A stretch of DNA of 45,847 nucleotides from a virus: UHGV virus genome UHGV-0097969. One strand, given 5' to 3'. The position numbers and the translations under genes are program-made. Each line of letters opens with the position of its first letter. Positions within the stretch are counted from its first letter, which is position 1. The notes beneath the pieces were generated by a model. It had not been told where the DNA came from. It saw only the letters and a program-made list of their open reading frames with translations, and ran no database searches. Positions 27,216 through 45,847 of this stretch are shown one piece after another.

Positions 27216-27498
27216 GATTAAACCCTAATGCGTCAACTATCCGCGCCAGATTGCCCCTGAAATACAGAACAACGATGCAGATAATCAGATTTCCAATAAC
27301 CACCAGCCAGTGGGATTCTTGATAAAGACCGAACACATAACGGAAGGGAACATTGGCGTATACAATGACGTAGATATAAGCCAGAAAGGAAACAAATGGA
27401 CGATGCCTGGAGTCTTTCCGTCGATAAAGCATCAGCGCCATTACTATTACTGTGCAAAGCACCGCATTAATCAGTGCTGACGGGTCACTGCTTACCAT
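27202..27498 (-). CDS. holin/antiholin-like membrane protein
   Basis: Strongly hydrophobic; start uncertain (track 27534, internal Met at 27498); between holin and endolysin. Confidence 0.4.
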   Translation of the reverse strand: MVSSDPSALINAVLCTVIVMALMLYRRKDSRHRPFVSFLAYIYVIVYANVPFRYVFGLYQESHWLVVIGNLIICIVVLYFRGNLARIVDALGFNHDQR

Positions 27499-27880
27499 TT
27501 GAACCCCCTCCACGTAAGCGGGAAAGCATTCCAAAGATGCTACCGAGATCCTGGCTGTTTACGAACGTGAGGATTTTAATTGTCAATGCAGCCACAATAA
27601 CCGCACCAAGCGCATCAAGAGGTCGATCGTTGTAGCTGGTCCATTTGGCAAGAAATGAGCCAACTAACGGCGCTCCAATCACTCCAACAATGAACGATGT
27701 AAAGAAATAGCCAATCAGCTTGAGACGGCTAATATTCACCGCTGTAGCAACATAGAAAACAGCGCCAGCAAATGCCCCGAATACAACGCCGTAATCAATA
27801 CCAGTTGCAATACCAAAAACGCTGGCACCCATCAGGCCACCAGCAGCAACGGCCGTACCGGAAATTGGTTCTGCTGACAT
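27485..27880 (-). CDS. holin-like membrane protein
   Basis: 131 aa, Gly/Ala-rich TM segments; ATG at 27880 with GAGGA upstream; first gene of the lysis block. Confidence 0.5.
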   Translation of the reverse strand: MSAEPISGTAVAAGGLMGASVFGIATGIDYGVVFGAFAGAVFYVATAVNISRLKLIGYFFTSFIVGVIGAPLVGSFLAKWTSYNDRPLDALGAVIVAALTIKILTFVNSQDLGSIFGMLSRLRGGGSNGKQ

Positions 27881-28258: not shown

Positions 28259-28441
28259 CTACAGCTTATATAAGTGGTTTTTCCAGCGGTTTTGCGCCGC
28301 GCTGGGCTTTTTGCAAAAACCACAATCCATCATCCCGTAATATTTCATCAACCCCATCCGTCGGTTGCTGAGTCTCACCCACTGCCAGACGCCAGGAGCG
28401 TTTCTACGAACTAACAGAATCTTTGCTTTACGGTTTTTCAT
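28259..28441 (-). CDS. hypothetical small basic protein
   Basis: Internal Met of a longer track ORF; overlaps upstream gene end. Confidence 0.25.
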   Translation of the reverse strand: MKNRKAKILLVRRNAPGVWQWVRLSNRRMGLMKYYGMMDCGFCKKPSAAQNRWKNHLYKL

Positions 28442-29009
28442 CGCTTTGCTCTCCTGCGTCTCCTTTGGTGCGAATTCCAGCGGCGCGCTCGGCTTCACTT
28501 TGTTCCCAAAACCACTTGTGAAGCTCCATGAGCTTTTCGTCAATCGGTGCATATTTGCGATTCAAGTAGGCCTGAGCATCTTTCTCAGATTCGTCCGGCA
28601 ATTCGCCTGGGCCAAACAGTGTGTTATAAATCCATGCCAGTCCGCTTTTAGCGTCGCCAGTCGATTGCCATTCGATAATGGCAGCCTGCATGACCAGAAT
28701 GTTTTTCCCGATTAATAGGTCCAGTTCTTTGTACCTGTTGCGGATGTATGCATTCTCGCTTTGTAATTTTGCGTTGCGCTTCTCTGCGGCTTCCAGCTCA
28801 ACACGCAGCTTCCCTACCGTTAGCGCAATTTCCTCGTTCTCCTGGTCACGGCGTTTGATGTATTGCTGGTTTCTTTCCCGTTCATCCAGTAGTGCCAGCA
28901 CAACCTGAGGTGTGACTTTCATACGAAATGCCAGCAATTTTTGAGGCGTTGCTACTGTTTCAATTGCTACTGCTGCCTCACGCAGTGCCTGATAGTCAAT
29001 CTTGCTCAC
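28428..29009 (-). CDS. hypothetical coiled-coil protein
   Basis: 193-aa ORF, charged heptad-like middle region. Confidence 0.4.
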   Translation of the reverse strand: MSKIDYQALREAAVAIETVATPQKLLAFRMKVTPQVVLALLDERERNQQYIKRRDQENEEIALTVGKLRVELEAAEKRNAKLQSENAYIRNRYKELDLLIGKNILVMQAAIIEWQSTGDAKSGLAWIYNTLFGPGELPDESEKDAQAYLNRKYAPIDEKLMELHKWFWEQSEAERAAGIRTKGDAGEQSDEKP

Positions 29010-29695
29010 TGGTTGCCCTCCTGAATACGCTTAAACTCAATTACCCATACCCACGGGTTAGATAGCCAGTTCTCTTGCCCGTAAATACCGCGCCAGATAT
29101 CACCAAAGCCAACGCGATAAACAGCTTCCGGCGGTGTAATCTTGTACGTCGCCGGAGATGCGCCTTCTGCTTTAGCATCTGCCTCGCTCATGTCATGCAG
29201 CCGTTCCACACGCACGTCGGTAATTTCCAGCAAAATACGCGAAGCCCAGCGCGGCATGTGAATTGATGGACACCACCCGCCATCAAACTTTTCATTCACA
29301 GTGTGAGGTTTCCAGTCGGCATCATCGGGGATCGACCACAGGCCGTAATCACCAGGCTTTTGCTCGCAACTGGCTCGATAAATCCTTGCTGCGTTCTTCT
29401 CATCGCCACGACAAAGGTTGTCGTTCCAGTCCACACTGCAACCATCCTCATTGCCTAATATCGCCCACGCTTCACGGACCCATATGCGATCACCAACGTT
29501 ACCGAACGGGCATAAACCATGTTCAGGAGCATCCATAACGTGGGTATAGACACCATTGCGTTTCTTTGTCGGTTTACGGATAACCAGGCAGTTATCGGCC
29601 CTGACATTTTTTACAGGTCGGCGAGTCTGCGTCTTCCTTCCTTCAAGGATGGCCCTAACCATATCGTCATTAAAAACAACACCACGTTCTTTCAT
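29006..29695 (-). CDS. ASCH-like domain protein
   Basis: N-terminus ...MVRAILEGRKTQTRRPV... resembles the ASCH GxKTxxxR motif. Confidence 0.45.
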   Translation of the reverse strand: MKERGVVFNDDMVRAILEGRKTQTRRPVKNVRADNCLVIRKPTKKRNGVYTHVMDAPEHGLCPFGNVGDRIWVREAWAILGNEDGCSVDWNDNLCRGDEKNAARIYRASCEQKPGDYGLWSIPDDADWKPHTVNEKFDGGWCPSIHMPRWASRILLEITDVRVERLHDMSEADAKAEGASPATYKITPPEAVYRVGFGDIWRGIYGQENWLSNPWVWVIEFKRIQEGNQ

Positions 29696-29850
29696 TTAGA
29701 AGCCACCTTGTTCAATTTCCGGCGACAAGACACGCAATCATCAGGACTCTCAAAAGTGTCTGGCTCACGGTAATCACCAAAATACATCCAACGGCCGCAA
29801 ATGCTGGTTACTTCACCTTCATTAAAATAATGATGTTTATTCGCCTTCAT
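29692..29850 (-). CDS. small Cys-containing protein (zinc-ribbon-like?)
   Basis: Internal Met of track ORF 29692-29946; CxxC-like pairs. Confidence 0.25.
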   Translation of the reverse strand: MKANKHHYFNEGEVTSICGRWMYFGDYREPDTFESPDDCVSCRRKLNKVASK

Positions 29851-29879
29851 TGGCCTGACCCATCCGGCATTTTTCTTGC

Positions 29880-30245
29880 TCACTTCAACTCCTCCCGACG
29901 ACGTTCCTGAAGCTCTAGCATTGCGGCTCGGAAATCCTGCCACCATTCCTCATCTGCAACGGGGGTGTTTCGCTCCAGCACCTTGTCCGCATCAGCGATC
30001 AGGTTTGCCAGACTCTTGTCTGAAATCTTCGTTACCGGAGTCGTTGGTTGCTCAACCTGCCCGATAGGTTTTATCGTGCTCAAAAGGAGGCGACGGCTGG
30101 AAAGTGGCGACCCACAACGGCGCCCATCTTCCTTGCGATATGTTTCTTTCGGACCAACACACCAGGTTGTCGGCGTTTCGCGTAACTTCACTTTTTTCTC
30201 ACCATCAATGGTGATGATTATTCCGGTATGGGTTTTGATGCTCAT
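29880..30245 (-). CDS. hypothetical protein
   Basis: 121-aa ORF, 4-nt overlap with upstream gene. Confidence 0.35.
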   Translation of the reverse strand: MSIKTHTGIIITIDGEKKVKLRETPTTWCVGPKETYRKEDGRRCGSPLSSRRLLLSTIKPIGQVEQPTTPVTKISDKSLANLIADADKVLERNTPVADEEWWQDFRAAMLELQERRREELK

Positions 30246-30544
30246 GCCACAGCCCCTCTCAACGGCTTAACTTTGGCTAATAAGGTGTTAAACAACATGG
30301 AGTTAGGATTCATGCCAAATGGCAATTCCGGTTTAGCGGAGTAGTACAGGCAACCATTTATTTTCCTGGTTGTTATCTGTCCTTCGGCAACCATGCTTCT
30401 CAGTCTGCAACGCATAGAGTTCTGCGACACACCAATGTGCTCCGCGATTACGTCCACTTTTGAACATGGGTGATCGGTCAGGAAATTAATCACATCTTGG
30501 GGGTTAATAATTTTGCGTTTCATTGTCGAGGCGTCCTTATACAT
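30242..30544 (-). CDS. putative winged-helix DNA-binding protein
   Basis: 100 aa; AT-rich octamer motif directly upstream (30541-30562). Confidence 0.4.
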   Translation of the reverse strand: MYKDASTMKRKIINPQDVINFLTDHPCSKVDVIAEHIGVSQNSMRCRLRSMVAEGQITTRKINGCLYYSAKPELPFGMNPNSMLFNTLLAKVKPLRGAVA

Positions 30545-30592
30545 TTATATAATTCTATATACAGCGGGAGACATCCCGCCGTAGGCTTACTG

Positions 30593-31660
30593 TCAGGCTT
30601 TCAATAGCGATTCTTTCAGATATCGGGCATCAGCCAGGGCGTTTGGAGTAATCTTGCGAACCCATGCATTACGGGTTGGACTCCACTTAAAGGCGCGTGA
30701 TTTAAGCAGCGAACGAATGTTTGCCTCTGGTTTGCCAGGGAAATAAAACAGGATGCGGTTATCCTCTGGATCTATCTCCATAGAAAAGCCGTCGTATTCT
30801 TCGCGCTGTGCTCCTGTTACAGACTTGACCGATTCAAGCTCCTTAATACGGCTCTGTAGTCGTTTGATTTCGGCGTTATTGTTGCTCAGTGCGTATGAAG
30901 GGAATCCGATGCGCCCACAGAAATCTCCGGCCAGTAACTCTTTGGCTTCGCTTTCTGTAAACCTGAGATCGATTAATGCAGAAAGCTGCTGTATTTGGTC
31001 TTTTTTGTATTTGCGAATGGCCTTATTTGCGGCCTTCATTTTGACGTGTGACTTCATGCAGCCTTGCAGCTTACGAAGCAACTTAAATAGCGCATCAGGA
31101 TCATCAGACGAAATTCCATTACGACCAACACCTGCGGCTTTGCTCTCGTAGTGTGATGCTTTACTTTCGCATTCAACAAACGCTTTTCTGAATAACGCAT
31201 CAGCTTTAGACAAACGGCGGCGATGGCCTTTCGCGCTATAATGGTCAACTAAAATCGGCTGGCCTAACGGGATCACATCCAACAGGTCATGCGCTCGCTT
31301 ATGCGCTACCGCACCTTCTTTTCTGGCTTTTTCTGCACGAGCAATATATCGGGCAAGACGCGCGTTCTGGCGTTCCTGATAGGTGTTTACGTAATCATCT
31401 CCGCGCTGCTGCTGTTCAAGCCATGCTTTGCGCAGATCTTCTGTTACGTCCACCAGCTCCGCAGGGATACAACCTGTTTGGGCTTCATAAGAGTAACCAT
31501 CCTCATAGATGCGCCCATCGTCTTCAACAAAGAAAAAGGTTTCGTGCTCATCGCTTTTGACCATACGACCATTAACATGGCGTAATAGGTAGCCAGTATC
31601 AGTGCTCAACAGGCTGTTAGGGTTGTTGATCCAGTCAGAAATAATTACTTGTTTATTCAT
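30593..31660 (-). CDS. DUF3560-like protein, first gene after repeat cassette b
   Basis: ATG at 31660 (MNKQVIISDW...); motif ...IPLGQPILVDHYSAKGHRRR... resembles DUF3560; the track N-terminal extension is the translated repeat. Confidence 0.5.
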   Translation of the reverse strand: MNKQVIISDWINNPNSLLSTDTGYLLRHVNGRMVKSDEHETFFFVEDDGRIYEDGYSYEAQTGCIPAELVDVTEDLRKAWLEQQQRGDDYVNTYQERQNARLARYIARAEKARKEGAVAHKRAHDLLDVIPLGQPILVDHYSAKGHRRRLSKADALFRKAFVECESKASHYESKAAGVGRNGISSDDPDALFKLLRKLQGCMKSHVKMKAANKAIRKYKKDQIQQLSALIDLRFTESEAKELLAGDFCGRIGFPSYALSNNNAEIKRLQSRIKELESVKSVTGAQREEYDGFSMEIDPEDNRILFYFPGKPEANIRSLLKSRAFKWSPTRNAWVRKITPNALADARYLKESLLKA

Positions 31661-31666
31661 CAGATT

Positions 31667-31768
31667 TCTCCGGTTTAACCAGGGCGGGTATCGCTCGGTT
31701 TCGGGTATAACCTTAGGAAATTTTTTCCCACCTGTAAAGCACTTTTTATATAAATCTATAATTATATA
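31667..31768 (-). promoter_or_regulatory. conserved promoter/leader cassette, copy b (P_R'-like position after the Q-like gene)
   Basis: Near-identical to copies a and c; lies about 60 bp downstream of the Q-like stop. Confidence 0.5.
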
Positions 31769-31830
31769 TTTATAGATTTTCCGATATTCCCGATGCCTAC
31801 AAATCACCAAAACAGCTCAAAATGACACTT

Positions 31831-32208
31831 TCACTCTCTTCGTTTTTTCAAATAGTCGACAACATACGCCCTGGCTTTTGCCAGCTTCCGGCGATACTGT
31901 CTGAGACTAAGAGAAAGGGCGTGGGCTTTATCAATATGCGGTGCATTTATGTCGAGGCCCCGAATCTCCCACGCCCCGTATTCAATTCTGACAACCAGCG
32001 CCGCAGTCTCATCAACTACCGTGAGGGCCGTCACCGCTCCCTCGATACTGGTTTCCAGTGAGTCATTTGGTGCGCCGCCCCCTCCAGTAAACTGGCAGCG
32101 CGTAACCATCATCATTTCTAACATCGACGCGAAACCGCTACGGGCGTTGCAGCCATTGCGCACCCACAGCGCCCATAGCTCAAACAAGCTATCCAGATCG
32201 CGTCTCAC
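31831..32208 (-). CDS. late-gene antiterminator, Q-like
   Basis: 125 aa; N-terminal ...LFELWALWVRNG... resembles the P22 gp23/Q-like WGAW region; sits upstream of a late-promoter-like cassette. Confidence 0.45.
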   Translation of the reverse strand: MRRDLDSLFELWALWVRNGCNARSGFASMLEMMMVTRCQFTGGGGAPNDSLETSIEGAVTALTVVDETAALVVRIEYGAWEIRGLDINAPHIDKAHALSLSLRQYRRKLAKARAYVVDYLKKRRE

Positions 32209-32211
32209 TGT

Positions 32212-32544
32212 TCAGATCTCCCGTATCGTGACGGGATAAAGCGCCTCTACCTGCTTTTTCTTCATGATGTAGACGTCTGTTCGCACACCTTTAGTGTCGA
32301 CACAATCAATCGTCCCATCGTCATAAAACACCATGAAATCAAGTTTATAAACGACACCACCTGGCAGATGAAAAGGCACCTGCATAAGAAACGTCACAAC
32401 GCGGCCAGCTTTTCTCAGTAGCTTCAGTTCGCAGTAGTAATCAGCCTCTTTTTTGCTATCAAAAGCGATATCATCGACAACCGTTTTTTTATTGCCGTAT
32501 TTGCTTTTCCTTGTCGCTGGTTTGCGAAAGCCGGTATATCTCAT
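32212..32544 (-). CDS. DUF1064-like phage protein
   Basis: ...KYGNKKTVVDDIAFDSKKEADYYCELKLL... matches the DUF1064 signature. Confidence 0.55.
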   Translation of the reverse strand: MRYTGFRKPATRKSKYGNKKTVVDDIAFDSKKEADYYCELKLLRKAGRVVTFLMQVPFHLPGGVVYKLDFMVFYDDGTIDCVDTKGVRTDVYIMKKKQVEALYPVTIREI

Positions 32545-32945
32545 TTGGTATCCCCTGGTACTTCACCAAGACTAAGATCAAACCCAATTTCGTCTTTAAC
32601 TGACTGCGGCAACAGCTCCCACGTCTGCGCACACAAAAATTCATCTGTGCCATAACGCTCAACAAAGCGAGCACAATTACTCAGGGGAGGGTGACGAACG
32701 GCAATATGCGGAGGCACGCGCCCACCACCAGGCACAACACCGCGATGATGTGGTGCGCACAACCCAAAGCTATGGAAATGGCAATTCTCATCAACGCTGC
32801 CGTAATCAGGATCGTGATGTAGCTCCGTCCACAGCTCTGGATTCTCAATTTCACGGCCATCAATAATGCAAGCTATGCAACCCACGTGAGTGAGCACCGC
32901 TTGTATATAAAGTTTCTCTTTCTTCGTTGGTGTACGTCCGTTCAT
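32541..32945 (-). CDS. Cys/His-rich protein, possible HNH-like nuclease fold
   Basis: ...LHHDPDYGSVDENCHFHSFGLCAPHH... Confidence 0.3.
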   Translation of the reverse strand: MNGRTPTKKEKLYIQAVLTHVGCIACIIDGREIENPELWTELHHDPDYGSVDENCHFHSFGLCAPHHRGVVPGGGRVPPHIAVRHPPLSNCARFVERYGTDEFLCAQTWELLPQSVKDEIGFDLSLGEVPGDTK

Positions 32946-33178
32946 CAGCGCCCCTTACCATTGATAAAGAGGTTGAACTCGTTGATTAACTGGACATACA
33001 TGCTTCTGGCCGCGTAGTTCTTTGCCAGCTCTTTACGGGATGAGATCCCGCAAAACTCACGCAGAATCACAGAGGCCTCAGAACTGTTTGAAACGTTCTT
33101 CCCTGTTTTACTGGTCAGAAAGCACCAGAATTGGGGATTCTGGCAATGCATCGCAGCACCGCGAACATAACTACTCAT
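32945..33178 (-). CDS. hypothetical protein
   Basis: 77-aa ORF coupled to neighbours. Confidence 0.3.
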   Translation of the reverse strand: MSSYVRGAAMHCQNPQFWCFLTSKTGKNVSNSSEASVILREFCGISSRKELAKNYAARSMYVQLINEFNLFINGKGR

Positions 33179-33690
33179 TGATGGCCCCCGTCATTTCTGG
33201 TGCTTTTCACCGTGCGGCTTCTTAAAAACCTGCCATCACGAACAACAGACACATCTCGTTTACCCATCCTCATTTCACGGCGGTAACATTCAGAAAATGC
33301 CTCGTCCGGCATCATATAAATGCGACGCTTCGCCTCCGTATCCAGAAGGGAACGGCTTGGGGTTACATATAAAAACGACTCATCAATAGGGACAAAACCA
33401 CGAGCAAGAATTGCTGGCAGAATGCCAGGAAGAACGCAGAAAACAGCTCCACGATGCAGCAACATCTGGTACTCCATGACCTCCGTTATCCCCGTGACTA
33501 CTGTTACGGTGTCACGTCTGTTACGGCTGGCAACCAGTCGCTGCACACGTCCAATTTTCTGATCTACAGATAGATGTTTGCTATCGTTATCAATATGATC
33601 GATAACAAACCCTTTAATCGTTTGATCAAGGTAGTGCACCACCTTCGATTGAATCTGGTGATTATCACCAAAGAAGGCCAGAATCATCAT
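33175..33690 (-). CDS. hypothetical protein
   Basis: 171-aa ORF, 4-nt overlap with the Cro-like gene. Confidence 0.4.
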   Translation of the reverse strand: MMILAFFGDNHQIQSKVVHYLDQTIKGFVIDHIDNDSKHLSVDQKIGRVQRLVASRNRRDTVTVVTGITEVMEYQMLLHRGAVFCVLPGILPAILARGFVPIDESFLYVTPSRSLLDTEAKRRIYMMPDEAFSECYRREMRMGKRDVSVVRDGRFLRSRTVKSTRNDGGHQ

Positions 33691-34181
33691 TCCTCAAGCC
33701 TCCCAAGTGCTGAACGCCGGGCGTTGCTAATCTCCTTATGAATCAGCTCGATATCGCTGGAATCTTTATTCTTAAACTCCAGCATGGCAATCGCATCACG
33801 AACCTCTGAAACGGTTACGTGTGAGTGTTTCCAGCGAGCAATGAATCGCGGACCGCGTAGATTGCAACGCTCCGCAGGCATCCCCAGCTCAGAGAAAACC
33901 GCTTTCAGCCTTGATAAGCAGTTAACAGGGAGATTCCCTTTGATCTTGTTCTGCCGAACCGATGTGCCATCGCTACGCTGGCGCTGACGTTCGGCAAAAT
34001 CTGCCGCCCATTGCTGGACGTTAATCCGGCCTTCCGAATACGCCACCAGCAGCGTCAGGTTATCCGCACGAGGGAATCTCTCGAAGCGATACCAGGCACC
34101 AATCAGTGATGACGTAAAGCCAAACTTTCTGGCAACACCAATTTGGCCTCCATTCTCGTCAACCCACTCCTGAAAGGTCAT
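33687..34181 (-). CDS. Cro-like HTH regulator with C-terminal extension
   Basis: ATG at 34181 with GGAG upstream; Cro/YdaS-like N-terminus; divergent from the CI-like repressor. Confidence 0.5.
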   Translation of the reverse strand: MTFQEWVDENGGQIGVARKFGFTSSLIGAWYRFERFPRADNLTLLVAYSEGRINVQQWAADFAERQRQRSDGTSVRQNKIKGNLPVNCLSRLKAVFSELGMPAERCNLRGPRFIARWKHSHVTVSEVRDAIAMLEFKNKDSSDIELIHKEISNARRSALGRLEE

Positions 34182-34199
34182 TTAACGAACTCCAGTCAA

Positions 34200-34317
34200 A
34201 CCACGATATGTGGTATTAAAACCACATATCGTGAGTTTTTCAATGGGCGAAACAAAAAATAACCTTCTATTTGTGGTCCACCTCTCGTCTTACCATGTGA
34301 AAACCACTAAATGTGGT
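34200..34317. promoter_or_regulatory. operator cluster ACCAC-N5-GTGGT in the divergent immunity promoter region
   Basis: Perfect sites ACCACGATATGTGGT (34200-34214) and ACCACTAAATGTGGT (34303-34317), partial sites at 34221-34233 and 34272-34280. Confidence 0.55.
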
Positions 34318-34354
34318 AATGTATAAATAACCCACCATTCACGATTGATGAGAC

Positions 34355-35011
34355 ATGAAAAGCAACGACGAGAACATCAAGAAAGAAATAGGTCTGCGCA
34401 TTCAGACTCTACGGAAACAATCCGGCATGACTGCCGGAGATCTCCAGCAAGTCACTGGAATAGGCTTAAGCACCTTGCAGAACTATGAGGCCGGATTAAG
34501 ACAACCATCTATACCTGCCATCAAGAAAATCGCGCACGCCCTGAAAGCATCAGCGCCTTATATCGCGTGCTTAACAGATAACCCGTTCCCACCCCAGAAT
34601 ACTAACGCTCCTGTTATTCCTGGGCTTGTAGCTATAAAAAATGACATAGCATCGCACGCCGGAGAAAAGCCAGTGCTGGCGATAGAACAGGAGATTCTAC
34701 GAAGCAAGAACATCAACCCATCGTCTCTGTCAGTTCTCCAGAGCAACGATGAGTTAATGTCACCAACAATATCCCCAGGCTCCCAAGTCCTGATTAATAC
34801 AGACGATACAGAGATTCATGAGGGGATCTATGCCCTTGAAGACAGAAATGGCCTGGTTGTTTTGAGGCACTGTAGAGTCATACCGGGTGACAATGCTGTT
34901 ATGCTGTCAACCGAAAGGGATGCTGAAATGAACACTAAGCATCTGAATAACGAGGAATTTAAGCGTTATAAAGTTCTGGGCCGCGTAGTTAGTGTTGTCA
35001 ACTGGTTATGA
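34355..35011 (+). CDS. CI-like repressor (HTH plus S24/LexA-like C-terminal domain)
   Basis: HTH ...QSGMTAGDLQQVTGIGLSTLQNYEAG...; C-terminal domain of LexA/CI type. Confidence 0.8.
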   Translation: MKSNDENIKKEIGLRIQTLRKQSGMTAGDLQQVTGIGLSTLQNYEAGLRQPSIPAIKKIAHALKASAPYIACLTDNPFPPQNTNAPVIPGLVAIKNDIASHAGEKPVLAIEQEILRSKNINPSSLSVLQSNDELMSPTISPGSQVLINTDDTEIHEGIYALEDRNGLVVLRHCRVIPGDNAVMLSTERDAEMNTKHLNNEEFKRYKVLGRVVSVVNWL

Positions 35012-35500: not shown

Positions 35501-35606
35501 TTATATGATTATAGATTTATATAATTATATAAAACACTTTTCATCAGCCAAAAAGTTGGTTATGCTTACCTCGTTCTATAAATATAGATTTATAGAATTA
35601 TATAAC
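35501..35606. repeat. AT-rich octamer arrays upstream of parA (candidate centromere/operator)
   Basis: ttatatga ttatagat ttatataa ttatataa at 35501-35532 and tatagatttatagaattatataa at 35580-35606; similar array at 36281-36314. Confidence 0.45.
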
Positions 35607-35613
35607 CAAACAC

Positions 35614-36282
35614 ATGGAGTCTCGACAAATGACTATCTCTGTAGGTATTTTCAACGGAAAAGGCGGCGTAACCAAATCAACAATTGCCCGTGCTTTAGCA
35701 GTTGCTTATGCAAAGGCCGGCTGGAATGTATGCCTGATCGATATGGATGTGCTTAACGGAACGGTAACGCGTTGGGTACAACGCAGAATGGCCAACAATA
35801 TCGAACCTGCAATCGCGGCGCAGCCGTGCGGCACACCATCACAAGTCCAGAAAATCATCGAATCAGAAGTATACGACCTGGTTATCGTCGATGGCGGTGC
35901 CTACGCATCTGAATCAGTACCGAAGCTCTCTGAATTTCTGGATATGGTTATTTTGCCAACCAGATTCTCTACCGATGACCTGGAAACCACCGTTAACACA
36001 GCTCATGGCATCGTTAAAAAGGGTGTGCCAATCAAGAAAATTTGCATGGTGTTCTCAGGCGCGGCTGAAAACGAAGCCGACTACATTGAAGCCCAAGAGT
36101 ACCTGGCTAATACGCCATACTTTGTTGTCGATAAGTACATTCCCCACAAGCCAGCTCTGAGCAAAGCTCAGGATAAGGGCTTAAGCCTCATTGAGTGCTC
36201 ATACGTTGCGCCACGCAAAAAGGCAGACGACGTTATTCAGGGGATTATCAACCAGCTTGAGGCTCTGACTACTGCCGCGTAA
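35614..36282 (+). CDS. parA: ParA/ParF-type partition ATPase (type Ib)
   Basis: Deviant Walker A GIFNGKGGVTKST; about 220 aa; probable true start ATG at 35629 with GGAG upstream. Confidence 0.85.
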   Translation: MESRQMTISVGIFNGKGGVTKSTIARALAVAYAKAGWNVCLIDMDVLNGTVTRWVQRRMANNIEPAIAAQPCGTPSQVQKIIESEVYDLVIVDGGAYASESVPKLSEFLDMVILPTRFSTDDLETTVNTAHGIVKKGVPIKKICMVFSGAAENEADYIEAQEYLANTPYFVVDKYIPHKPALSKAQDKGLSLIECSYVAPRKKADDVIQGIINQLEALTTAA

Positions 36283-36325
36283 TATATAATTATAGTTTTA
36301 TAGATTTATATAAGAGGGGATACAC

Positions 36326-36574
36326 ATGGCCGCACCATCAAAACCACCAAAGAAGAACAGCAAAGGCGTACCGCCATCGATCGAACAACCGCAGGTTTTC
36401 GACCCGACTGAAACGCCAACCAGAACCAAATCAGGTGGGGCACAAATGGCGTTTAACGTCGACCCTGAATTTAAACGTGAGTACAAAACATTCGCCAGCT
36501 CAATGGATATGTCATTGAAAGAAGTGCTGACAAAATCTTTTGAGTTACTCAAGGCTCAATACAACCAGAAGTAA
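36326..36574 (+). CDS. ParG-like ribbon-helix-helix centromere-binding protein
   Basis: 82 aa; flexible basic N-terminus then RHH-like ...QMAFNVDPEFKREYKTFASSMDMSLKEVLTKSFELL; immediately after parA. Confidence 0.55.
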   Translation: MAAPSKPPKKNSKGVPPSIEQPQVFDPTETPTRTKSGGAQMAFNVDPEFKREYKTFASSMDMSLKEVLTKSFELLKAQYNQK

Positions 36575-36795: not shown

Positions 36796-36819
36796 TAAAA
36801 AAGGCCCCCGAAGGGGCCT
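36796..36819 (-). terminator. intrinsic terminator between convergent units
   Basis: AGGCCCC-cgaa-GGGGCCT stem with T-run on the minus strand. Confidence 0.5.
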
Positions 36820-36824
36820 AATCG

Positions 36825-36947
36825 CTACTTGCTGCTAATGTTTATCGTCACATTCAGAGCGTTATCAGTAATCTTCCAACCCTCCCCATGTGGCGTAAAC
36901 AAAGCTCCAGTAACAACGATAAAAATACACATGTAGTATTTTTTCAT
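36825..36947 (-). CDS. small hydrophobic peptide (40 aa), putative
   Basis: MKKYYMCIFIVVTGALFTPHG...; AAGGG SD; terminator directly after the stop. Confidence 0.3.
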   Translation of the reverse strand: MKKYYMCIFIVVTGALFTPHGEGWKITDNALNVTINISSK

Positions 36948-37261
36948 TGTGTGGCCCTTACAGGCCGTTTCACGGCATCCCCACCGACGAAAATGACGCG
37001 AGAGCAAGCACGCTGTTTGTGCCTGCGTGGTACGGCAAGTGGATAATCCTTTCCTGAAAGTCAGTGCCCGGGTGCGAATCGGCGGAAAGGCCCCAAGCCA
37101 TATTACACGTCATACCCTTCATAATGAAGGAATAAAAAACGCTTTTATTACATAAGATTACACGTAAATAAGTTAAAAACCTTCATTTTGCATGAGCTAA
37201 TGAGCTAAATTTTTTTATATGAATAGTGGACTATTCACCTCAGTTGGGTAAGAATGTAGTT

Positions 37262-37365
37262 GCTGTTTGTGCTTGCGTGGTTGTATTAGTACAACGACGT
37301 TATGCTGAAAGGACCGCGAATCCGATCAGCACGAAAGAACCGTCCTCAAAAGGACGGTTTTTTTG
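37262..37365 (+). ncRNA. candidate small RNA (about 100 nt)
   Basis: Promoter-like TGGACT-N17-AAGAAT (37227-37255), strong terminator ACCGTCCT-caaa-AGGACGGT plus T6 at 37339-37365; 3' end overlaps the stop of the convergent HTH gene. Confidence 0.35.
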
Positions 37366-37918
37366 TTTCTCCCCCTTCCTTCCCAAATGATTCAAATGTT
37401 AATGAGAGTGAATCATTTGATATGTTCGATTTAGCGCCGTTATCGACCCAATTTCTGTATGCTTCATCACAACAGTACCTTACAGCAGTTGGAATAACAG
37501 GAGAGCCGCCCAGAAATGAAAATCCCATTGAGCTTATGCTAATTCTTTCGAATGGCCTATTTCTCAATGCTTCAAATCCCTTGCTGTTGAAGTAACTCAG
37601 CATCAGAGGTAAAAGGTTATCCTCGTCTTGACTGATTGTTCCCGGGAAAAAGTAGTAACCATGGCGATTAAATTCGGGAATCAGTTTTTCTACCAACAAC
37701 ATGAAATTCATTGGGGTAATATTAAGGGCAGAGCAAGCACCAAAAAGAGCATCAACCGTTAATACAGACTGTCCGTTCTCTATCTTTGTCCATGCGTTTG
37801 GTGTTTTTCCAGCAGCTTGAGCCAGCACTCCTTGATGCACACCTCTTTCTAGCCTAAGTTCTTTTATGATCATTAGGTGGATTGTTGAAAAACATGAGTT
37901 TTTTGACGTTTCAGTCAT
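37346..37918 (-). CDS. HTH (XRE-type) regulator with C-terminal domain of unknown function
   Basis: Likely ATG at 37918 (track 37975); divergent from the antirepressor operon. Confidence 0.5.
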   Translation of the reverse strand: MTETSKNSCFSTIHLMIIKELRLERGVHQGVLAQAAGKTPNAWTKIENGQSVLTVDALFGACSALNITPMNFMLLVEKLIPEFNRHGYYFFPGTISQDEDNLLPLMLSYFNSKGFEALRNRPFERISISSMGFSFLGGSPVIPTAVRYCCDEAYRNWVDNGAKSNISNDSLSLTFESFGKEGGETKKPSF

Positions 37919-38056
37919 TTTTTTATCCCCATATTGAATTTTTTCCTTGTTCCCAACTTTAACAAAACACCACAACTCAGGATTGAGTCATTCCCTACAG
38001 GAACTATACATTCCCGTATTTGGTATATCAAGAAAATTAAAAGCTCGGCATTCAAA

Positions 38057-38071
38057 CCCACACTATGTGGT
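38057..38071. promoter_or_regulatory. operator-like site CCCAC-N5-GTGGT upstream of the antirepressor operon
   Basis: One mismatch to the ACCAC-N5-GTGGT sites at the cI/cro region; sits about 25 bp upstream of a TTGACA -35. Confidence 0.4.
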
Positions 38072-38094
38072 TTAGTCTGTTAAAATCCGCCGTA

Positions 38095-38203
38095 TTGACA
38101 TGAATGCGCCATTGGTGGACACTTTCCGAGCCGTAGCAAAATCTACGGTCGGGATTGGAACCCCGTAGACACAATGGCGCATACCGCGTTAGCGGTTTTT
38201 TTA
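38095..38203 (+). promoter_or_regulatory. promoter plus structured leader with intrinsic terminator (attenuator or small RNA) ahead of the antirepressor operon
   Basis: TTGACA at 38095-38100; hairpin CCGTAG-caaaat-CTACGG; long-range GCGCCATTG...CAATGGCGC; terminator ACCGC-gtta-GCGGT plus T7 at 38183-38202. Confidence 0.35.
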
Positions 38204-38368
38204 TGCGTAAAGCACTGCTACACCCAAATTATGGTGGGGCGTGCGGGGGAGTCGTAAGACTCGCCGGTTCGTCATTGTGTCCGGTAGTTCCAACCCAGCA
38301 CGTCTCACCACCCAATGATTGGAACCTGACGGTGGTGAGTATCCTTAACCTTTAAGGGAATCATCACA

Positions 38369-38560
38369 ATGACAAACCTACCCCATGACTATTACGTCAA
38401 CCTCGTAAAGATCCTTCTCAAGAAAGCCTCATACGCCGATAAATTCCGCTTGGCTGAAATAATCGAGCGCGAAGCTATGCGCATCGCCAGCAACGATAAC
38501 GCTGTTTCTGACGCAAAAATCTCCCTCGTAACCAAAGTAGTTATGGGAGGTGCAAAATGA
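38369..38560 (+). CDS. small protein upstream of and coupled to the antirepressor
   Basis: 63 aa, AAGGGA SD; stop overlaps next start (ATGA). Confidence 0.4.
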   Translation: MTNLPHDYYVNLVKILLKKASYADKFRLAEIIEREAMRIASNDNAVSDAKISLVTKVVMGGAK

Positions 38561-39738
38561 AAACGCTTCCGACCGTTAACACCCTACAGCCTATCCTGCA
38601 TAACCAAATCCCCGTTATCACTACTGAACTACTGGCAAAGCTATACGGCACAGACGTTGATAACATCAAAAAAAATTACTCACGTAACGCAAACCGCTTT
38701 ATTGAAGGAAAGCATTTTTTCAAAGTGGCTGGCGATGAGTTAAAAACTTTGCGAGTGACTTTAAGTCACTCACAAAATTTGCGACTGGTTTTAAACGAGT
38801 CACAAAATGAGGTGCAAATTTCCCCCAAAACTCGCTCTCTCATCCTCTGGACAGAACGCGGGGCTGCACGTCACGCCAAAATGCTTGAAACTAACCAAGC
38901 GTGGGATGTGTTCGAACGGCTGGAAGACTGCTACTTCAACCAGAACGCGCAAACGGCCGCGACCGTTACCGTCTCGCCAAACAATGCTCGTGAGGTTGTC
39001 GATACGCTCAACGCCAAACCGATGTTTTACATTAAAGTGTGCAACAACGAGCCACTCACAACCTCAGCCGATGTTGCCCAGGCATTCAGCACCACAAACA
39101 ATTCCATCGTTATGGCCATCGATGCGCTACGCATTCCTCGCACGGCTGCGGCGCGTCACTTCTTTAAAGAGCAACGACCGCTGGAAGGAAGCGACCGCGA
39201 AATAACAATCTATCGCATGACAAAAGACGGATTTACCTTACTCATGGAGAGCATCGACGGTCCAAGCGTGAAAGATATCAAGCTGGCCTACATTGAAGCC
39301 TTTAACGCTATCAGCAGCGTGTTAAAAACACAGTACGAGCGTGATCTGGCTAAACGACTGTACCAGGAAAAAACGATTATCCGCGCGGCAACAGAGCATA
39401 ATCGGCTATTAACGGAACCGAACTACAGGAAGGAACTAATCAAGGAGTTTGACAAGGCAACAGGAAAAACCAAAGCGGCGCTAAATCTGCCAGCAATGAC
39501 TCAGGAAAATGTGATATCAGCCTTACTTCTTGATCTGCTCAGAAACGCCAGAGCACTGATCAGCTTTGACGAAAACCTGAATCCTCAGCTCAAGCTACTA
39601 CCACCGACAGGCAAAGTAGTCGACCAGGCAGATCACAACAGCATACTCAGCGTACTGGATGCAAACCTACCAGCCAGGACACTACAGGAACTGATAAAGA
39701 TATCGGCGGATAAACTGGCCGCAGGTGCAAAACCATAA
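38557..39738 (+). CDS. Rha-family phage regulatory protein / antirepressor (ORF6N-like N-terminus plus Rha domain)
   Basis: ...ILWTERGAARHAKMLETNQAWDVFERLEDCYF... and ...ITIYRMTKDGFTLLMESIDGPSVKDIKLAYIEAFNAI... resemble ORF6N and Rha signatures. Confidence 0.55.
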   Translation: MKTLPTVNTLQPILHNQIPVITTELLAKLYGTDVDNIKKNYSRNANRFIEGKHFFKVAGDELKTLRVTLSHSQNLRLVLNESQNEVQISPKTRSLILWTERGAARHAKMLETNQAWDVFERLEDCYFNQNAQTAATVTVSPNNAREVVDTLNAKPMFYIKVCNNEPLTTSADVAQAFSTTNNSIVMAIDALRIPRTAAARHFFKEQRPLEGSDREITIYRMTKDGFTLLMESIDGPSVKDIKLAYIEAFNAISSVLKTQYERDLAKRLYQEKTIIRAATEHNRLLTEPNYRKELIKEFDKATGKTKAALNLPAMTQENVISALLLDLLRNARALISFDENLNPQLKLLPPTGKVVDQADHNSILSVLDANLPARTLQELIKISADKLAAGAKP

Positions 39739-39772
39739 AACAAAGCGCCCGATTTGGGCGCTTCTTCAATTC

Positions 39773-40408
39773 TTAATATTTCAGTGTAATCAGTAGCGAC
39801 ACGTGCCCTGATTTGTCACGAGAAACGTAATACTCGCCTCTCTTAGTCTTAAACTCAGCTTTCTGCGTATCAGATTTAACAATCTGCTCTAACTGCGCGA
39901 TCACTGTGTCTCTATCACTTGATGCATCCAAGACTTCAACAGCTACGGCCATAGAAAGCAAGGAATCAGAGCTAGGCTTAGATACTCGCCATAATAACTC
40001 TGAAATCTTCCCATCCTTATCAACTCTAGCTCGACCGTTAACAGATGAATTGATGGCAAATTCAACGGTGTTGTTACCTTGTTTAACTGACTTAATTCTT
40101 ATAGTGGAGGTGGATTTTCCTGATGTAGCGATACCTTCAAGGTCATCATTATATAGCTGCTTAAACTTATCTACGGTCACGCCATCGAAAGCAGCTCCGG
40201 TAGTAGCCGTAGTGCCGGAGTCTTCTGGAATCAAGGCCACAGCAGCAAGAGTATTAACAACAACAAAAGTAGCAATCCCAAGAAACCCACTCACTAAAAC
40301 AGCTTTGAACTTACTACCAGAAGATGGGCCACATTGTTTCCGATATGCACCACGAACTACGAAGAAACACAAAATCAGGCTAATAATAAACGCCACCAGC
40401 ATCCCCAT
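39773..40408 (-). CDS. membrane-anchored protein of unknown function
   Basis: 211 aa, two N-terminal hydrophobic helices, Ser/Thr-rich soluble domain. Confidence 0.5.
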   Translation of the reverse strand: MGMLVAFIISLILCFFVVRGAYRKQCGPSSGSKFKAVLVSGFLGIATFVVVNTLAAVALIPEDSGTTATTGAAFDGVTVDKFKQLYNDDLEGIATSGKSTSTIRIKSVKQGNNTVEFAINSSVNGRARVDKDGKISELLWRVSKPSSDSLLSMAVAVEVLDASSDRDTVIAQLEQIVKSDTQKAEFKTKRGEYYVSRDKSGHVSLLITLKY

Positions 40409-41923: not shown

Positions 41924-42223
41924 TCAGATGTTAAACGCTATTCGTTTTCCTGTGGGAAGCTCAACATCCAGGCTTAATTTGCCTCCCATAGCTTCAACGT
42001 AACGCTTTAATGTCGCCAGCTTTAAATCATTTCCGCGCTGCTCCAGCTTTGTTACTGCTGGCTGGCTTATACCCATCGCCTCAGCAACCTGTTTTTGTGA
42101 TAACTGGAGTTCTTCACGCATCATCTGCAAGCCGACCTCAAGAATCATCTCATCTGCCATTTCTTTAATTCGCGCCTGGCTTTCCGGTGAACGGCTGGCA
42201 ATCGCCTCATCTAATGTTCTCAT
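41924..42223 (-). CDS. higA: HTH antitoxin, HigA-like
   Basis: 99 aa, XRE-type HTH ...LSQKQVAEAMGISQPAVTKLEQ...; start overlaps toxin stop (ATGA). Confidence 0.65.
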   Translation of the reverse strand: MRTLDEAIASRSPESQARIKEMADEMILEVGLQMMREELQLSQKQVAEAMGISQPAVTKLEQRGNDLKLATLKRYVEAMGGKLSLDVELPTGKRIAFNI

Positions 42224-42576
42224 TACTTGCTCTCCAGTGTGTTCAGATGTGCTGCAAACTCATCCTCAGCTATACGCACCAGTTTTTCATAAAACCGCTT
42301 ATCGTTACTTTTGTCTCCTGCACAAAGAACGATGGCCCGGCGAATCGGATCGAACGCATAAAAGGCTCTTATCGGACGGCCAAAAAACTGAACGCGAAGC
42401 TCTTTCATATTTTTGTACCGAGAACCTTTTACGGTATCGGCATATGGCCTAGGTAACTCAGGTCCGTAAACCTGTAGCTTTTTCAAATCAGCCAAAACCT
42501 TTTCCTGAAGAGCGTCTTCTTGCTCATTTAGCCAGTCGTCAAATCGCTGGCTAAAAAGTACCGTCCACATGCTCAA
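42223..42576 (-). CDS. higB: RelE/HigB-like toxin (Gp49-like)
   Basis: ...RVQFFGRPIRAFYAFDPIRRAIVLCAGDKSNDKRFYEKL... resembles the Gp49/HigB family; toxin-first order; track start is TTG, likely ATG at 42570. Confidence 0.65.
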   Translation of the reverse strand: MSMWTVLFSQRFDDWLNEQEDALQEKVLADLKKLQVYGPELPRPYADTVKGSRYKNMKELRVQFFGRPIRAFYAFDPIRRAIVLCAGDKSNDKRFYEKLVRIAEDEFAAHLNTLESK

Positions 42577-43636: not shown

Positions 43637-43748
43637 TTCGAAACGCGCCGTTTCGAAAAGGATGATCAGGCTGCTCCATGCCTCCGGCAAGTGCCGGAGG
43701 AGGTATATTTGAGCGTAGCGACTCGAACCGGCGCGAGCTTTAGCTCGC
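43637..43748. repeat. cluster of three perfect palindromes in the AT-rich region downstream of repA (candidate origin)
   Basis: TTCGAAACG-cgc-CGTTTCGAA (43637-43657), CCTCCGGCA-ag-TGCCGGAGG (43681-43700), GCGAGCT-tt-AGCTCGC (43733-43748). Confidence 0.4.
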
Positions 43749-44032
43749 TGCAAGGGCGAACATATTCACAGGCAAAGCCTGCGTAAGTTAAATAAAGAAA
43801 GTCTTAATAAAAGAAAGTGATTTTGCATTTATTTGTTTAGTGCATCTATTATAAAAAACCATTTGCATATACATATCAAAACTGTGGACAACTTAATTAG
43901 CCGATGCCTGTAAAGGCGATATTTACGCTGTGTTCAGGTTTAGAGAAAATTAATTTAGCTTGTTTTTTGAACAGATATTTTATTGCGACGTAGATAATCC
44001 TCCGGTAAAACCGGATTCATCATTCAGGTGGG

Positions 44033-44881
44033 TTAATGTTGGAGTGATTTCCAGGTCTTTCTTAGCCTGTTATAACGCTGCTCAACGAGGGAGCGTAAAT
44101 ATGCAAGGTCAGCTCCAGGATACATGCCATCAGCAAATTCCTGGCTAACCTCTCTAGTGATTTGATGACGAAGTTCGGCCTCTCCCTTTTCCCGAACAAG
44201 ACGCGCAGCTCTCTCCGCTGCTTTCTGTTTTGCCTTTATCTCTCTGGCCGTCTTCCTCTGACGCCATACATTCTCCATCTGCTCCTGAATAACAATACGC
44301 TTATAATCAGCCTCCGTTATCGCTTTTTTAAGCCGTTCGCTATTCTTCGCATTGAAGTAATTAAGTTTCTGGCTAACCGCACGTCTCCATGCTTGTTCAG
44401 TAATACCAACGGTTTCCAGCAGTTGATCACGAATCTCTATTTTCGCTGGCCAATACTGTTTATTCACCCGATCCCAGCGACGTTCATAATCAATAAAACC
44501 TAACGCTTTCAGTTGCGACAACGCCCTTGTACAGCGCGTTATAGACTTGTTCCCAGCTTCGGATACGGTAGACAGGCCGCAAAAATCAGCCAACGCCTCA
44601 GCACTAGCCAGAACCCGCTTAGAAATGATGTTTACATGGTGCAAAATCGCAGCGATCACAGCATTAATCGCCCGACGACGATGCTCGTTTATCCGGCGCT
44701 TCCGCTCTGACGGTTGATTAACGTAGAACGCAACCTCACACGTAAGATCACGCCCATTAATGCGCTGTAAAGCATCAGATAACACCAGCGGCAGCTTGTG
44801 CGTATGGTGCTTTGGAGGCTGGAACTCCGGCGACAAATTACAAACGTAAGCTGAACGTAGAGACGGCATTGGTCTATCCAT
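44033..44881 (-). CDS. repA: replication initiator RepA, IncFII RepA1-like
   Basis: ...CGLSTVSEAGNKSITRCTRALSQLKALGFIDYERRWD... resembles R100/R1 RepA1; basic C-terminus; in-frame upstream ATG at 45013 would add 44 aa. Confidence 0.75.
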   Translation of the reverse strand: MDRPMPSLRSAYVCNLSPEFQPPKHHTHKLPLVLSDALQRINGRDLTCEVAFYVNQPSERKRRINEHRRRAINAVIAAILHHVNIISKRVLASAEALADFCGLSTVSEAGNKSITRCTRALSQLKALGFIDYERRWDRVNKQYWPAKIEIRDQLLETVGITEQAWRRAVSQKLNYFNAKNSERLKKAITEADYKRIVIQEQMENVWRQRKTAREIKAKQKAAERAARLVREKGEAELRHQITREVSQEFADGMYPGADLAYLRSLVEQRYNRLRKTWKSLQH

Positions 44882-44925
44882 ATGTTCGCTCTTGCGTCCA
44901 CGGAAAACCAACGTATAATGGGAGT

Positions 44926-45006
44926 TGTCGAGGCGCCCATGGATTGTTGTTGTTGGTTTTCCGTGGATGTCGCAAGAAGCCCGCAGATTTATCTGCGGGC
45001 TTTTTG
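44926..45006 (+). ncRNA. CopA-like antisense RNA in the repA leader
   Basis: Promoter TTGCGT-N16-TATAAT (44892-44919) and terminator GCCCGCAGA-ttta-TCTGCGGGC plus T5 (44979-45005), opposite to repA. Confidence 0.45.
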
Positions 45007-45194
45007 TTTCCATATCTGGTCACTTTCCAACCAGACACCCACAATCATAACCACGTTACGTGGTTTTAAGAGAACTCTACCACAACACTTTCGGTCATGC
45101 ACGAAGTCTCTCACTGATCGAACGATAATCCACCAGTAAAAGGATCTAAATTGGATCTCGTTTTGCGAGCATCATACTACTGGCCTAACTCCAG

Positions 45195-45749
45195 TCAATG
45201 ATTCCCAGCCGGAAACCTGCGGTAAAGCGTGGATAAGGTAACATCGAAGATAATCGCTATCTGCTTACGTGAAACACCATTCGCAATAAGCCTTCCGATC
45301 TGTTCCCATTGCTCTGGTGCCAATTTTGAGCGGCGTCCTCCTATCCTGCCGTTAGCCCTTGCCACCGCCAATCCTGCACGCGTTCTTTCAATCATATTTT
45401 CCCGCTCCATCTCTGCGACTGCACTCAGCATCGTGTAGGCAAAGCGGCCAATTGAAGTGCTAATTTTTATCCCTTCCGTAATCGAAATAAACTCAATGTT
45501 GTTTGATAAAAAATAATTAAGTAAATCAACAAGATGAATCAGAGAGCGCCCCATTCGGTCCAGCTTCCAGACAATAACCGTATCGCCCGGCCGTAACACC
45601 TTCAGTAGCTTATCAAGTCCTGGTCGTTTTGATTTAGCACCGGATATTTTATCTTCAAAAATCCGGTCACATCCTGAACTCCTGAGCGCCTCCAGTTGTA
45701 ATTCCAAATTCTGGTCAAAAGTTGACACCCTCGCATAACCATATTGCAT
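45195..45749 (-). CDS. site-specific DNA invertase, Gin/Pin/Cin/Hin family serine recombinase
   Basis: MQYGYARVSTFDQNLELQLEAL...VWKLDRMGRS... catalytic-Ser N-terminus and C-terminal HTH; 184 aa. Confidence 0.9.
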   Translation of the reverse strand: MQYGYARVSTFDQNLELQLEALRSSGCDRIFEDKISGAKSKRPGLDKLLKVLRPGDTVIVWKLDRMGRSLIHLVDLLNYFLSNNIEFISITEGIKISTSIGRFAYTMLSAVAEMERENMIERTRAGLAVARANGRIGGRRSKLAPEQWEQIGRLIANGVSRKQIAIIFDVTLSTLYRRFPAGNH

Positions 45750-45813: not shown

Positions 45814-45839
45814 TTCGCAAAAACCTCGGTTTGCAGGAA
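45814..45839. other. gix/cix-like invertase crossover site B
   Basis: Reverse complement TTCCTGCAAACC GA GGTTTTTGCGAA; inverted partner of site A; 65 bp upstream of the invertase start. Confidence 0.6.
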
Positions 45840-45847
45840 ACGGTAAA

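Follow-up and report, generated by a model that had tools for sequence, protein, structure and literature searches.

The stretch of DNA analysed here (hereafter the window) comprises 45,847 nucleotides (nt) of virus genome UHGV-0097969. A preliminary description, made from the letters alone, had called it a likely phage-plasmid, with virion genes and a plasmid replicon on one molecule. Almost all of the long open reading frames (ORFs) lie on the minus strand. Read from high to low coordinates, this strand carries a serine invertase gene, repA, a gap of ~640 bp, several small genes, a HigB/HigA-like gene pair and regulators. A plus-strand island at 34.3-39.7 kb holds the genes for a CI-like repressor and for ParA with its small partner, followed by an antirepressor operon. 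Beyond the island the minus strand continues with the early operon, lysis genes, methyltransferases, terminase, a lambda-type head and a P2-type contractile tail (Table 1). The window is nearly the whole genome of a temperate tailed phage that resides in Escherichia coli as a free, circular, non-integrating plasmid.

The window matched the closed circular plasmid pHN68-3 (NZ_CP141847, 48,743 bp) at 99.8-99.9% identity over its full length, except for divergent accessory stretches at 28472-29018, 38653-38832 and 39720-40346. Mapped on pHN68-3 it forms one continuous circle from which only pHN68-3 positions 22434-25343 (2.9 kb) are missing, and the only genes there are those for alternative fibre tips and for the assembly of tail fibres. 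Positions 1-25 of the window, taken as the reverse complement, are identical to 45823-45847, and the contig stops at both; we take these repeats to resemble the Gin crossover site gix. Because the ends are exact inverted repeats, the contig termini are read as the two recombination sites of an invertible segment, and a break at such a segment is typical of short-read assembly. The components of an invertible tail-fibre switch are all present, namely a small serine invertase, inverted sites and alternative fibre tips (the tips being in pHN68-3). The window is thus very probably one short-read contig of a circular phage-plasmid of ~48.7 kb that lacks only the invertible tail-fibre segment. Short-read surveys will meet this element as an open contig of ~46 kb.

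The sequence is not new, having been made public many times over under the names of plasmids and of phages. Sibling records comprise ~70 plasmids of E. coli, E. albertii and E. fergusonii with 97-99.9% identity over the full length; they share with the window the gene order, the replicon, the partition locus, the toxin-antitoxin pair and the virion genes, and they are labelled as plasmids, the label phage-plasmid being absent. Among them is the 48,488-bp plasmid of strain ATCC 25922 (NZ_CP009073). The architecture recurs in more than 60 plasmids of 47-52 kb that are closed, circular and non-mobilizable. The replicon was found at 98-100% identity in more than 60 plasmids of E. coli, E. albertii, E. 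fergusonii and Klebsiella aerogenes and at 74% identity in three Salmonella plasmids, and among 72,556 plasmid records its DNA was found in no other kind of plasmid and never without phage genes. When complete E. coli genomes were searched, 71 of 5,426 carried the replicon, in 82 copies, all on plasmids of 39-57 kb and none on a chromosome. The head module was present in 72 complete E. coli genomes, the same genome set as the replicon. One match of the head module to a supposed chromosome was rejected as a chromosomal copy, since this lone non-plasmid record is an incomplete 31-kb contig labelled extrachromosomal. Several assemblies of ATCC 25922 are among the carriers; one of these (NZ_CP032086.1, 94,204 bp) contains two copies of the element, either a dimer or an assembly duplication. 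Finally, the GenBank phage records vB_YpM_39, 41 and 44 (OR545053-OR545055) are 97-99% identical to the window over both the virion half and the plasmid half. They have circular maps of ~49 kb, give Yersinia pestis EV76 in the host field and annotate nearly all genes as hypothetical. Nine contigs of IMG/VR carry the repA control motif.

The minus-strand ORF at 44033-45013 (326 aa) exists as listed, and the preliminary description had read it as an IncFII-type RepA. A database profile search bore out the homology with matches above curated cut-offs, both to Pfam IncFII_repA (PF02387; E 1.3e-43, 149.8 bits against a cut-off of 22.9) and to NCBIfam NF040977, RepA_IncFII_LM (231.5 bits, cut-off 70). 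The canonical IncFII equivalog TIGR03474 was missed (78.6 bits vs a cut-off of 446.9), and identity to IncFII RepA was ~31% over 39% of the length. On these scores RepA is a distant IncFII relative within the IncFII_repA superfamily, not a strict IncFII-group protein. Nor did the upstream start hold. Relatives in Salmonella and K. aerogenes are without the ATG at 45013 and their 277-aa RepA aligns from window position 44869, so the true repA is 44033-44869 or 44033-44881. The ATG at 44881 and its Shine-Dalgarno sequence are conserved. In the relatives they begin a short leader ORF that runs into the start of repA, and in the window the ATG shares the repA reading frame. A long ORF from 44940 was considered as a conserved leader peptide and rejected, as its frame relative to repA varies between relatives. 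Among the ordinary plasmids of a plasmid collection, the nearest RepA had 36% identity and its plasmid carried type IV secretion genes; a relative of 63% identity lies on a metagenome contig with VirB-type conjugation genes. A scan of genome contigs gave no RepA relatives.

The 330 nt upstream of repA are strongly structured (z-score -7.5), and the antisense RNA predicted from the opposite strand has a fold z-score of -6.4. An RNA of 81-91 nt with a 5' tail, stem-loop 1 and a terminator hairpin was predicted in 9 of 9 variants from three lineages. Five pairs of the terminator show compensatory changes, and the lineages differ in the loop of stem-loop 1. The five closest sequences form 27 of 27 pairs, and compensatory changes occur at two of these. 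Because several of the pairs are G-U, for which the sense strand would have A-C mismatches, the pairing is valid on the antisense strand only. Promoter, terminator, fold and compensatory changes together support, in silico, the antisense-RNA control of repA that had been claimed, and the RNA is predicted to be analogous but unrelated to CopA. Downstream of repA, an origin core of ~170 bp is conserved in eight loci, including phage-plasmids with a Mu-type tail (described below) and a conjugative plasmid; the core is presumably comparable to the R1 oriR with its G-site. No iteron array was found near repA, and iteron control is for that reason unlikely.

Two further plasmid functions had been named. 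ParA (222 aa) is of the small Walker type without an N-terminal helix-turn-helix (HTH); it gave CbiA, ParA and MipZ matches and a weak match to ParF of TP228 (4dzz, E 3e-4), and its gene is immediately preceded by AT-rich repeats with an 8-bp period. The ParA half of the proposed ParA/ParG-like pair stands on its profile matches, while the ParG-like, ribbon-helix-helix label for the 82-aa partner is a guess. The proposed HigBA-like addiction module was found as described, with the toxin gene (42223-42576; Gp49/HigB-like RelE family, PF05973, E 4e-22) upstream of an HTH_3 antitoxin gene (41924-42223) that overlaps it by one base. A full-length match to the ryfA RNA family (36797-37095, minus strand; 134.6 bits, Rfam cut-off 80) lies between the partition locus and the second HTH regulator.

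The immunity functions occupy both ends of the plus-strand island. In a by-eye alignment the CI-like repressor would have leucine where LexA and lambda CI have the catalytic serine and lysine. Its protease-like domain thus appears to be without catalytic residues, which fits induction through an antirepressor, and on this ground induction is probably driven by the module of C4-type RNA, small ORF and ORF6N-Rha antirepressor. In that module the C4 RNA scored 74.1 bits (Rfam cut-off 45) and the isrK-like RNA 67.7 bits (cut-off 50), and a sequence complementary to the C4 RNA lies just downstream at ~38314-38330. The predicted order (C4-family RNA, its target, antirepressor gene) is that of P1, P7 and N15. 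The segment 39720-40408, with a 211-aa ORF (phrog_23465, function unknown), is missing from pHN68-3, from the Yersinia phage and from the Salmonella plasmid and is a variable accessory slot adjoining the antirepressor gene.

The region had been described as lambdoid, with Q-like, DUF1064 and CI/Cro components. The DUF1064 protein is indeed encoded in the early operon and a CI-like repressor is present. A Cro protein was not identified, and no match to a Q-family Pfam entry was obtained among the 13 minus-strand ORFs of at least 120 aa scanned between 23301 and 34181. With its C4 RNA and antirepressor the immunity region is not purely lambdoid and comes closer to P1 and N15.

A palindrome of the form ACCAC-N5-GTGGT may link the immunity genes with the replicon. 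Exact copies were found at 34200 and 34303 (in the gap that separates the early operon from the repressor gene), at 35054 (beyond the repressor gene) and at 45050 (in the repA leader), and a copy with one mismatch at 38057, before the antirepressor operon. All five lie in regulatory gaps, against a chance expectation of at most 0.7. In relatives the half-sites are fixed and the centre is variable. In a Citrobacter lineage with a differing repressor the control region carries TTGTAGTC/GACTACAA three times, and the same 8-mer recurs in the repA leader; in C. freundii contig L006 (UFWO01000003) the motif lies at 9295 and 19540-19590. That repressor and leader motif change together points to the repA leader as a binding site of the prophage repressor. 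A precedent is CB, the repressor of N15 and phiKO2, which binds operators at repA and thereby reduces the copy number of the plasmid (PMC4997575). Since the palindrome also precedes the antirepressor operon and recurs in the leader of repA, the repressor of the present element probably tunes replication as well, as CB does.

From these features a life cycle can be proposed. In a lysogen the element would most likely persist as a plasmid, assumed to be of low copy number, with RepA acting on the origin just downstream of its gene. Following the logic of CopA in R1, repA would be held down by the two-stem-loop antisense RNA of ~85 nt from the opposite strand of its leader. The ParA ATPase and the 82-aa partner would segregate the copies, and the HigB/HigA-like pair would kill cells that lose the element. 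The CI-like repressor, bound to operators of the type AAAACCAC-N5-GTGGTTTT, would keep the early operon off. Upon lytic growth the copy in the window would be expected to produce virions, as a myovirus with a lambda-type head and a P2-type tail, and the serine invertase would switch the tip of the tail fibre.

The remaining genes are those of a virion and of its release. Of the complete head, tail, lysis and immunity set that had been claimed, the virion and lysis genes were confirmed by the Prokaryotic Genome Annotation Pipeline (PGAP) annotation of pHN68-3 and by Pfam and PHROG scans. The virion, packaging and lysis set is complete, with only the tail-fibre tip outside the contig. The head module includes connectors, a decoration protein, a ClpP-like protease, a portal and a DUF6148 protein, and the closest capsid protein outside the lineage belongs to a Vibrio phage (45% identity). 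Gene names in the tail and baseplate module come from the PGAP annotation of pHN68-3, 99.9% identical here, together with the ORF list. The tail-fibre DNA at 1-1346 is 88-91% identical to P2-type tail-fibre genes. Adjoining the terminase genes are genes for three ParB_N/Srx-domain proteins, one of them fused to a methyltransferase (19176-23055), and for an MT-A70 methylase (25135-25722); these look like orphan methylases, possibly with an anti-restriction role. The tRNA at 26029-26104 was called tRNA-Met by ARAGORN, its orthologue tRNA-Ile by PGAP. The DUF3560 protein of the early operon (405 aa, 30593-31810, minus strand) gave a primase-like PHROG match (E 4e-37) and is a candidate for a lytic-replication function apart from RepA.

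Table 1. Features of the window, with positions counted from its first letter (CDS, coding sequence)
Feature	Position	Strand	Remarks
Left crossover site of invertible tail-fibre segment	1-25	.	exact 25-nt inverted match; gix/cix-like
Tail-fibre gene, constant 5' part	1-1346	-	runs off window start into missing invertible segment; pHN68-3 CDS 21088-23313
P2-type contractile tail and baseplate	1377-11207	-	I, J, W-like, V, gpD/VgrG-like, X, tape measure, chaperone, tube, sheath
Lambda-type head/packaging module	11208-19185	-	ORFs and PGAP names on pHN68-3
Major capsid protein	12427-13470	-	
Large terminase	16763-18619	-	
Small terminase	18625-19185	-	phrog_57, E 7e-42
ParB_N/Srx-domain proteins, ParB_N-methyltransferase fusion, MT-A70 methyltransferase, small unknown genes	19176-25722	-	
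tRNA, CAT anticodon	26029-26104	-	between lysis cassette and MT-A70 methylase gene
Lysis cassette	26398-27880	-	two holins, GH108 endolysin with peptidoglycan-binding domain, small downstream ORF
Early operon	28259-34181	-	Ead/Ea22-like, DUF3560 protein, DUF1064 protein, Ref nuclease, unknown proteins
Divergent control region	34198-34318	.	three or four operator-like palindromes AAAACCAC-N5-GTGGTTTT
CI-like prophage repressor	34355-35011	+	HTH_3 and weak, degenerate S24-like C-terminal domain
Partition locus	35501-36574	+	AT-rich repeats 35501-35613, ParA 35614-36282, 82-aa partner 36326-36574
Second HTH regulator	37346-37975	-	divergent from antirepressor operon
Secondary immunity module	38057-39738	+	
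Operator-like site of this module	38057-38071	+	
isrK-like RNA	38130-38202	+	
C4 antisense RNA	38227-38315	+	
63-aa ORF	38369-38560	+	
ORF6N-Rha antirepressor	38557-39738	+	
Toxin-antitoxin pair	41924-42576	-	toxin gene first
Predicted replication origin core	43724-43891	-	DnaA box TTGTCCACA at 43883-43891, three ATGCA(A/C) motifs, AT-rich stretch
Origin core hairpins	within 43724-43891	-	covarying, then CGCGCCGGTTCG
repA	44033-44881	-	conserved start 44869 (278 aa); in-frame ATG at 44881 with conserved Shine-Dalgarno
Predicted antisense RNA gene	44892-45013	+	conserved promoter, two stem-loops, conserved terminator
Antisense promoter	44892-44919	+	-35 TTGCGT 44892-44897; -10 TATAAT (perfect) 44914-44919; start near 44923-44927
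Antisense terminator hairpin	44973-45006	+	followed by U-run; U-run only on antisense strand
Operator-like palindrome ACCACGTAACGTGGT in repA leader	45050-45064	.	
repA sense promoter	45171-45198	-	conserved, TTGACT-16-TATGAT
Serine DNA invertase, Hin/Gin/Cin/Pin type	45195-45749	-	184 aa; Resolvase domain E 3e-44 and HTH_7
Right crossover site	45823-45847	.	inverted vs 1-25; contig end

A number of points weigh against reading the window as a functional phage-plasmid with the regulation proposed above. The relatives are the only source for circularity, for copy number and for the lack of an integrated copy. The isolation of vB_YpM_39, 41 and 44 as virions rests on GenBank names and host fields, and no publication on any of the three was found; two further candidates, vB_EcoM-613R2 and 473R2, were rejected as phage isolates, being PHASTER predictions. 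With regard to regulation, the copy of the palindrome at 45050 could be a hairpin of the RNA and not an operator, and the one at 35054, which is followed by a T-run, may be just the terminator of the repressor gene. No LexA/SOS box was found near the antirepressor or repressor genes. The covariation statistics of the antisense RNA are modest (five sequences, the observed score being reached in 33 of 500 shuffles), and no Rfam family matched this RNA, CopA remaining unmatched at the gathering score or at E up to 10. With regard to partition, ParA scored 78.5 bits, below the NCBIfam cut-off of 180, and the 82-aa partner had no Pfam, NCBIfam or PDB sequence match and none with Foldseek, its model consisting of a disordered first half and then two helices (pLDDT 65).

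The element might be an ordinary plasmid with a captured prophage as dead cargo that yields no infectious particles. Decayed copies do occur, as expected on that account. The 32-kb circular plasmid pCREC-544_3 (NZ_CP024829.1) has kept repA and lost the repressor, partition, early and lysis genes, and its terminase and baseplate J genes are split; in NZ_CP173475.1 an IS1203 is inserted in the terminase gene, and most records are annotated as plasmids only. NZ_CP172156.1, at 39 kb, is also shorter than its siblings. In the window, however, all structural, packaging and lysis ORFs are full length and 99-100% identical to those of pHN68-3, and the three Yersinia phage records match across the whole element, replicon included. 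The replicon was never met without phage genes in the plasmid records searched, and head module and replicon occur in the same genomes. We consider dead cargo improbable.

An integrating prophage, with its integrase or attachment end in the missing segment or on another contig, could be suspected of a window that is not closed and lacks ~2.9 kb. The missing 2.9 kb is accounted for in the closed relatives by tail-fibre tips and assembly genes, no annotated integrase was present in the closed relatives inspected, none of the 82 replicon copies is chromosomal, and both ends of the window are invertase crossover sites and not host DNA. Within the window there is no tyrosine integrase or large serine recombinase, the 184-aa invertase being the sole recombinase, and all ORFs of at least 250 aa were assigned to structural, replication or regulatory functions. 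The claim that no integrase is present was therefore upheld, and integration is hardly credible. The third alternative is a carrier state (pseudolysogeny) without real plasmid functions, in which RepA would serve lytic replication only. Here the primase-like match of the DUF3560 protein cuts in favour, since separate replication functions are possible, yet across lineages repA has beside it a conserved partition ATPase, toxin-antitoxin pair and copy-control antisense RNA. The element also has a stable record, being carried by many unrelated isolates and met again in repeated ATCC 25922 assemblies, and the deletion derivative without the early operon is still a plasmid. A carrier state is accordingly very improbable, and a phage-plasmid, as first proposed, is the reading that we retain, on the strength of the closed circular relatives, the 82 plasmid copies vs none on chromosomes and the near-identical phage records.

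More distant relatives indicate how the element may be built. RepA homologues of 81-85% identity belong to Salmonella and K. aerogenes elements of the same type, and homologues of ~60% identity adjoin Mu-type baseplate genes. The Mu-tail loci (L006, L008, L010 and L012) have the same replicon with Mu-type, not P2-type, baseplate genes, and C. freundii contig L006 also shares ParA and its small partner, the CI-like repressor, the Rha antirepressor and the start of the early operon. By gene content this looks like a conserved plasmid backbone with a swapped virion module. In the Mu-tail lineage the antisense module and repA are separated by an additional ORF (42-162 aa). In L006 (9516-10004), L010 (9528-10004) and a further locus, L011 (1236-1712), it is 158-162 aa long and overlaps the start of repA (ATGA); the versions in L010 and L011 carry an IncFII_repA Pfam match of their own, and those in L008 and L012 are cut to 63 and 42 aa. 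It is possible, if short of probable, that these elements form a prevalent and uncharacterised family of phage-plasmids in Enterobacteriaceae, with one backbone (RepA/antisense replicon, ParA locus, CI-like repressor and antirepressor), virion modules that can be exchanged (P2-type tail for Escherichia, Salmonella and Klebsiella, Mu-type for Citrobacter) and repressor binding in the repA leader. If this is true, increased replication and lytic growth would set in together once the repressor is lost.

Approximately 1.3% of complete E. coli genomes hold the element as a cryptic plasmid, among them ATCC 25922, a control strain for antibiotic testing worldwide. Its recognition as an inducible phage matters for plasmid typing, in which MOB-suite assigns no replicon type (for pHN68-3, per PLSDB), for prophage surveys, where short-read contigs break at the invertible segment, and for questions of host range, as sibling records are phages recorded on Y. 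pestis. At 48 kb it would also be a compact model for plasmid copy-number control shared between a phage repressor and an antisense RNA. Current concepts are unchanged, since phage-plasmids, repressor control of repA (N15) and C4-type control of an antirepressor (P1) are already established.

The preliminary description did not recognise the combination as a described phage-plasmid group, and this holds against the named groups that were checked by size, morphology, DNA searches and capsid. Eight well-defined groups of 55-111 kb (P1, N15, SSU5_pHCM2, pSLy3, pKpn, pMT1, pCAV and AB) were compared; P1 is the sole Escherichia myovirus group among them and none is of 48 kb. The tyPPing scheme has ten types, none matching the element, and adds cp32, the ~30-kb plasmids of Borrelia. 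DNA searches gave no match to P1, SSU5 or N15 beyond ~600 bp of invertase and tail fibre (90% identity) common with SJ46 of the P1 group. Membership in the pSLy3 group was rejected, pSLy3 being a 110-kb siphovirus of the SSU5 supergroup, and so was kinship with the "plasmid-like" Yersinia phage HQ103, a 32-kb P2-type phage with only tail-fibre DNA in common. Accessions of the element were not found in the supplements of phage-plasmid papers. The VP882 community of Pfeifer et al. is heterogeneous, including Escherichia and Klebsiella elements that average 41 kb, and may include the lineage.

With P1 the element shares the state of a plasmid prophage, an invertible tail-fibre segment and a Cin-like invertase, and its secondary immunity module resembles immI (c4-icd-ant) of P1 and P7 in that a C4-family RNA with its putative target directly downstream precedes a small ORF and the antirepressor. 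It differs from P1 in having no DNA or capsid similarity and half the genome size. The RepA of P1 is iteron-controlled, unlike this replicon. The layout of R1 is CopA/CopT, tap, RepA and oriR. The present replicon resembles R1 and R100 of IncFII in its promoter, leader, predicted two-hairpin antisense RNA of ~85-90 nt, leader ORF (in the relatives), repA and downstream origin with DnaA box and AT-rich stretch, and differs from them in that CopA has no Rfam match here and no CopB was identified. The Citrobacter Mu-tail phage-plasmids and the metagenome contigs have a RepA of ~60% identity, the antisense module and the origin core in common with the element; the Mu-tail phage-plasmids are set apart by a Mu-type baseplate (Gp45 to Gp48) and another operator motif. 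In N15-type phages, as would be the case here, the antirepressor locus is governed by a small processed RNA. N15 itself is a linear siphovirus with a protelomerase and a primase-type RepA, whereas the present element is a circular myovirus with an IncFII-superfamily RepA and a predicted antisense RNA, and no ORF of protelomerase size occurs in the window. What the element would share with N15, phiKO2 and PY54 is the logic by which a CI-like repressor without cleavage motifs binds both its own switch and repA and so sets the copy number (PMC4997575).

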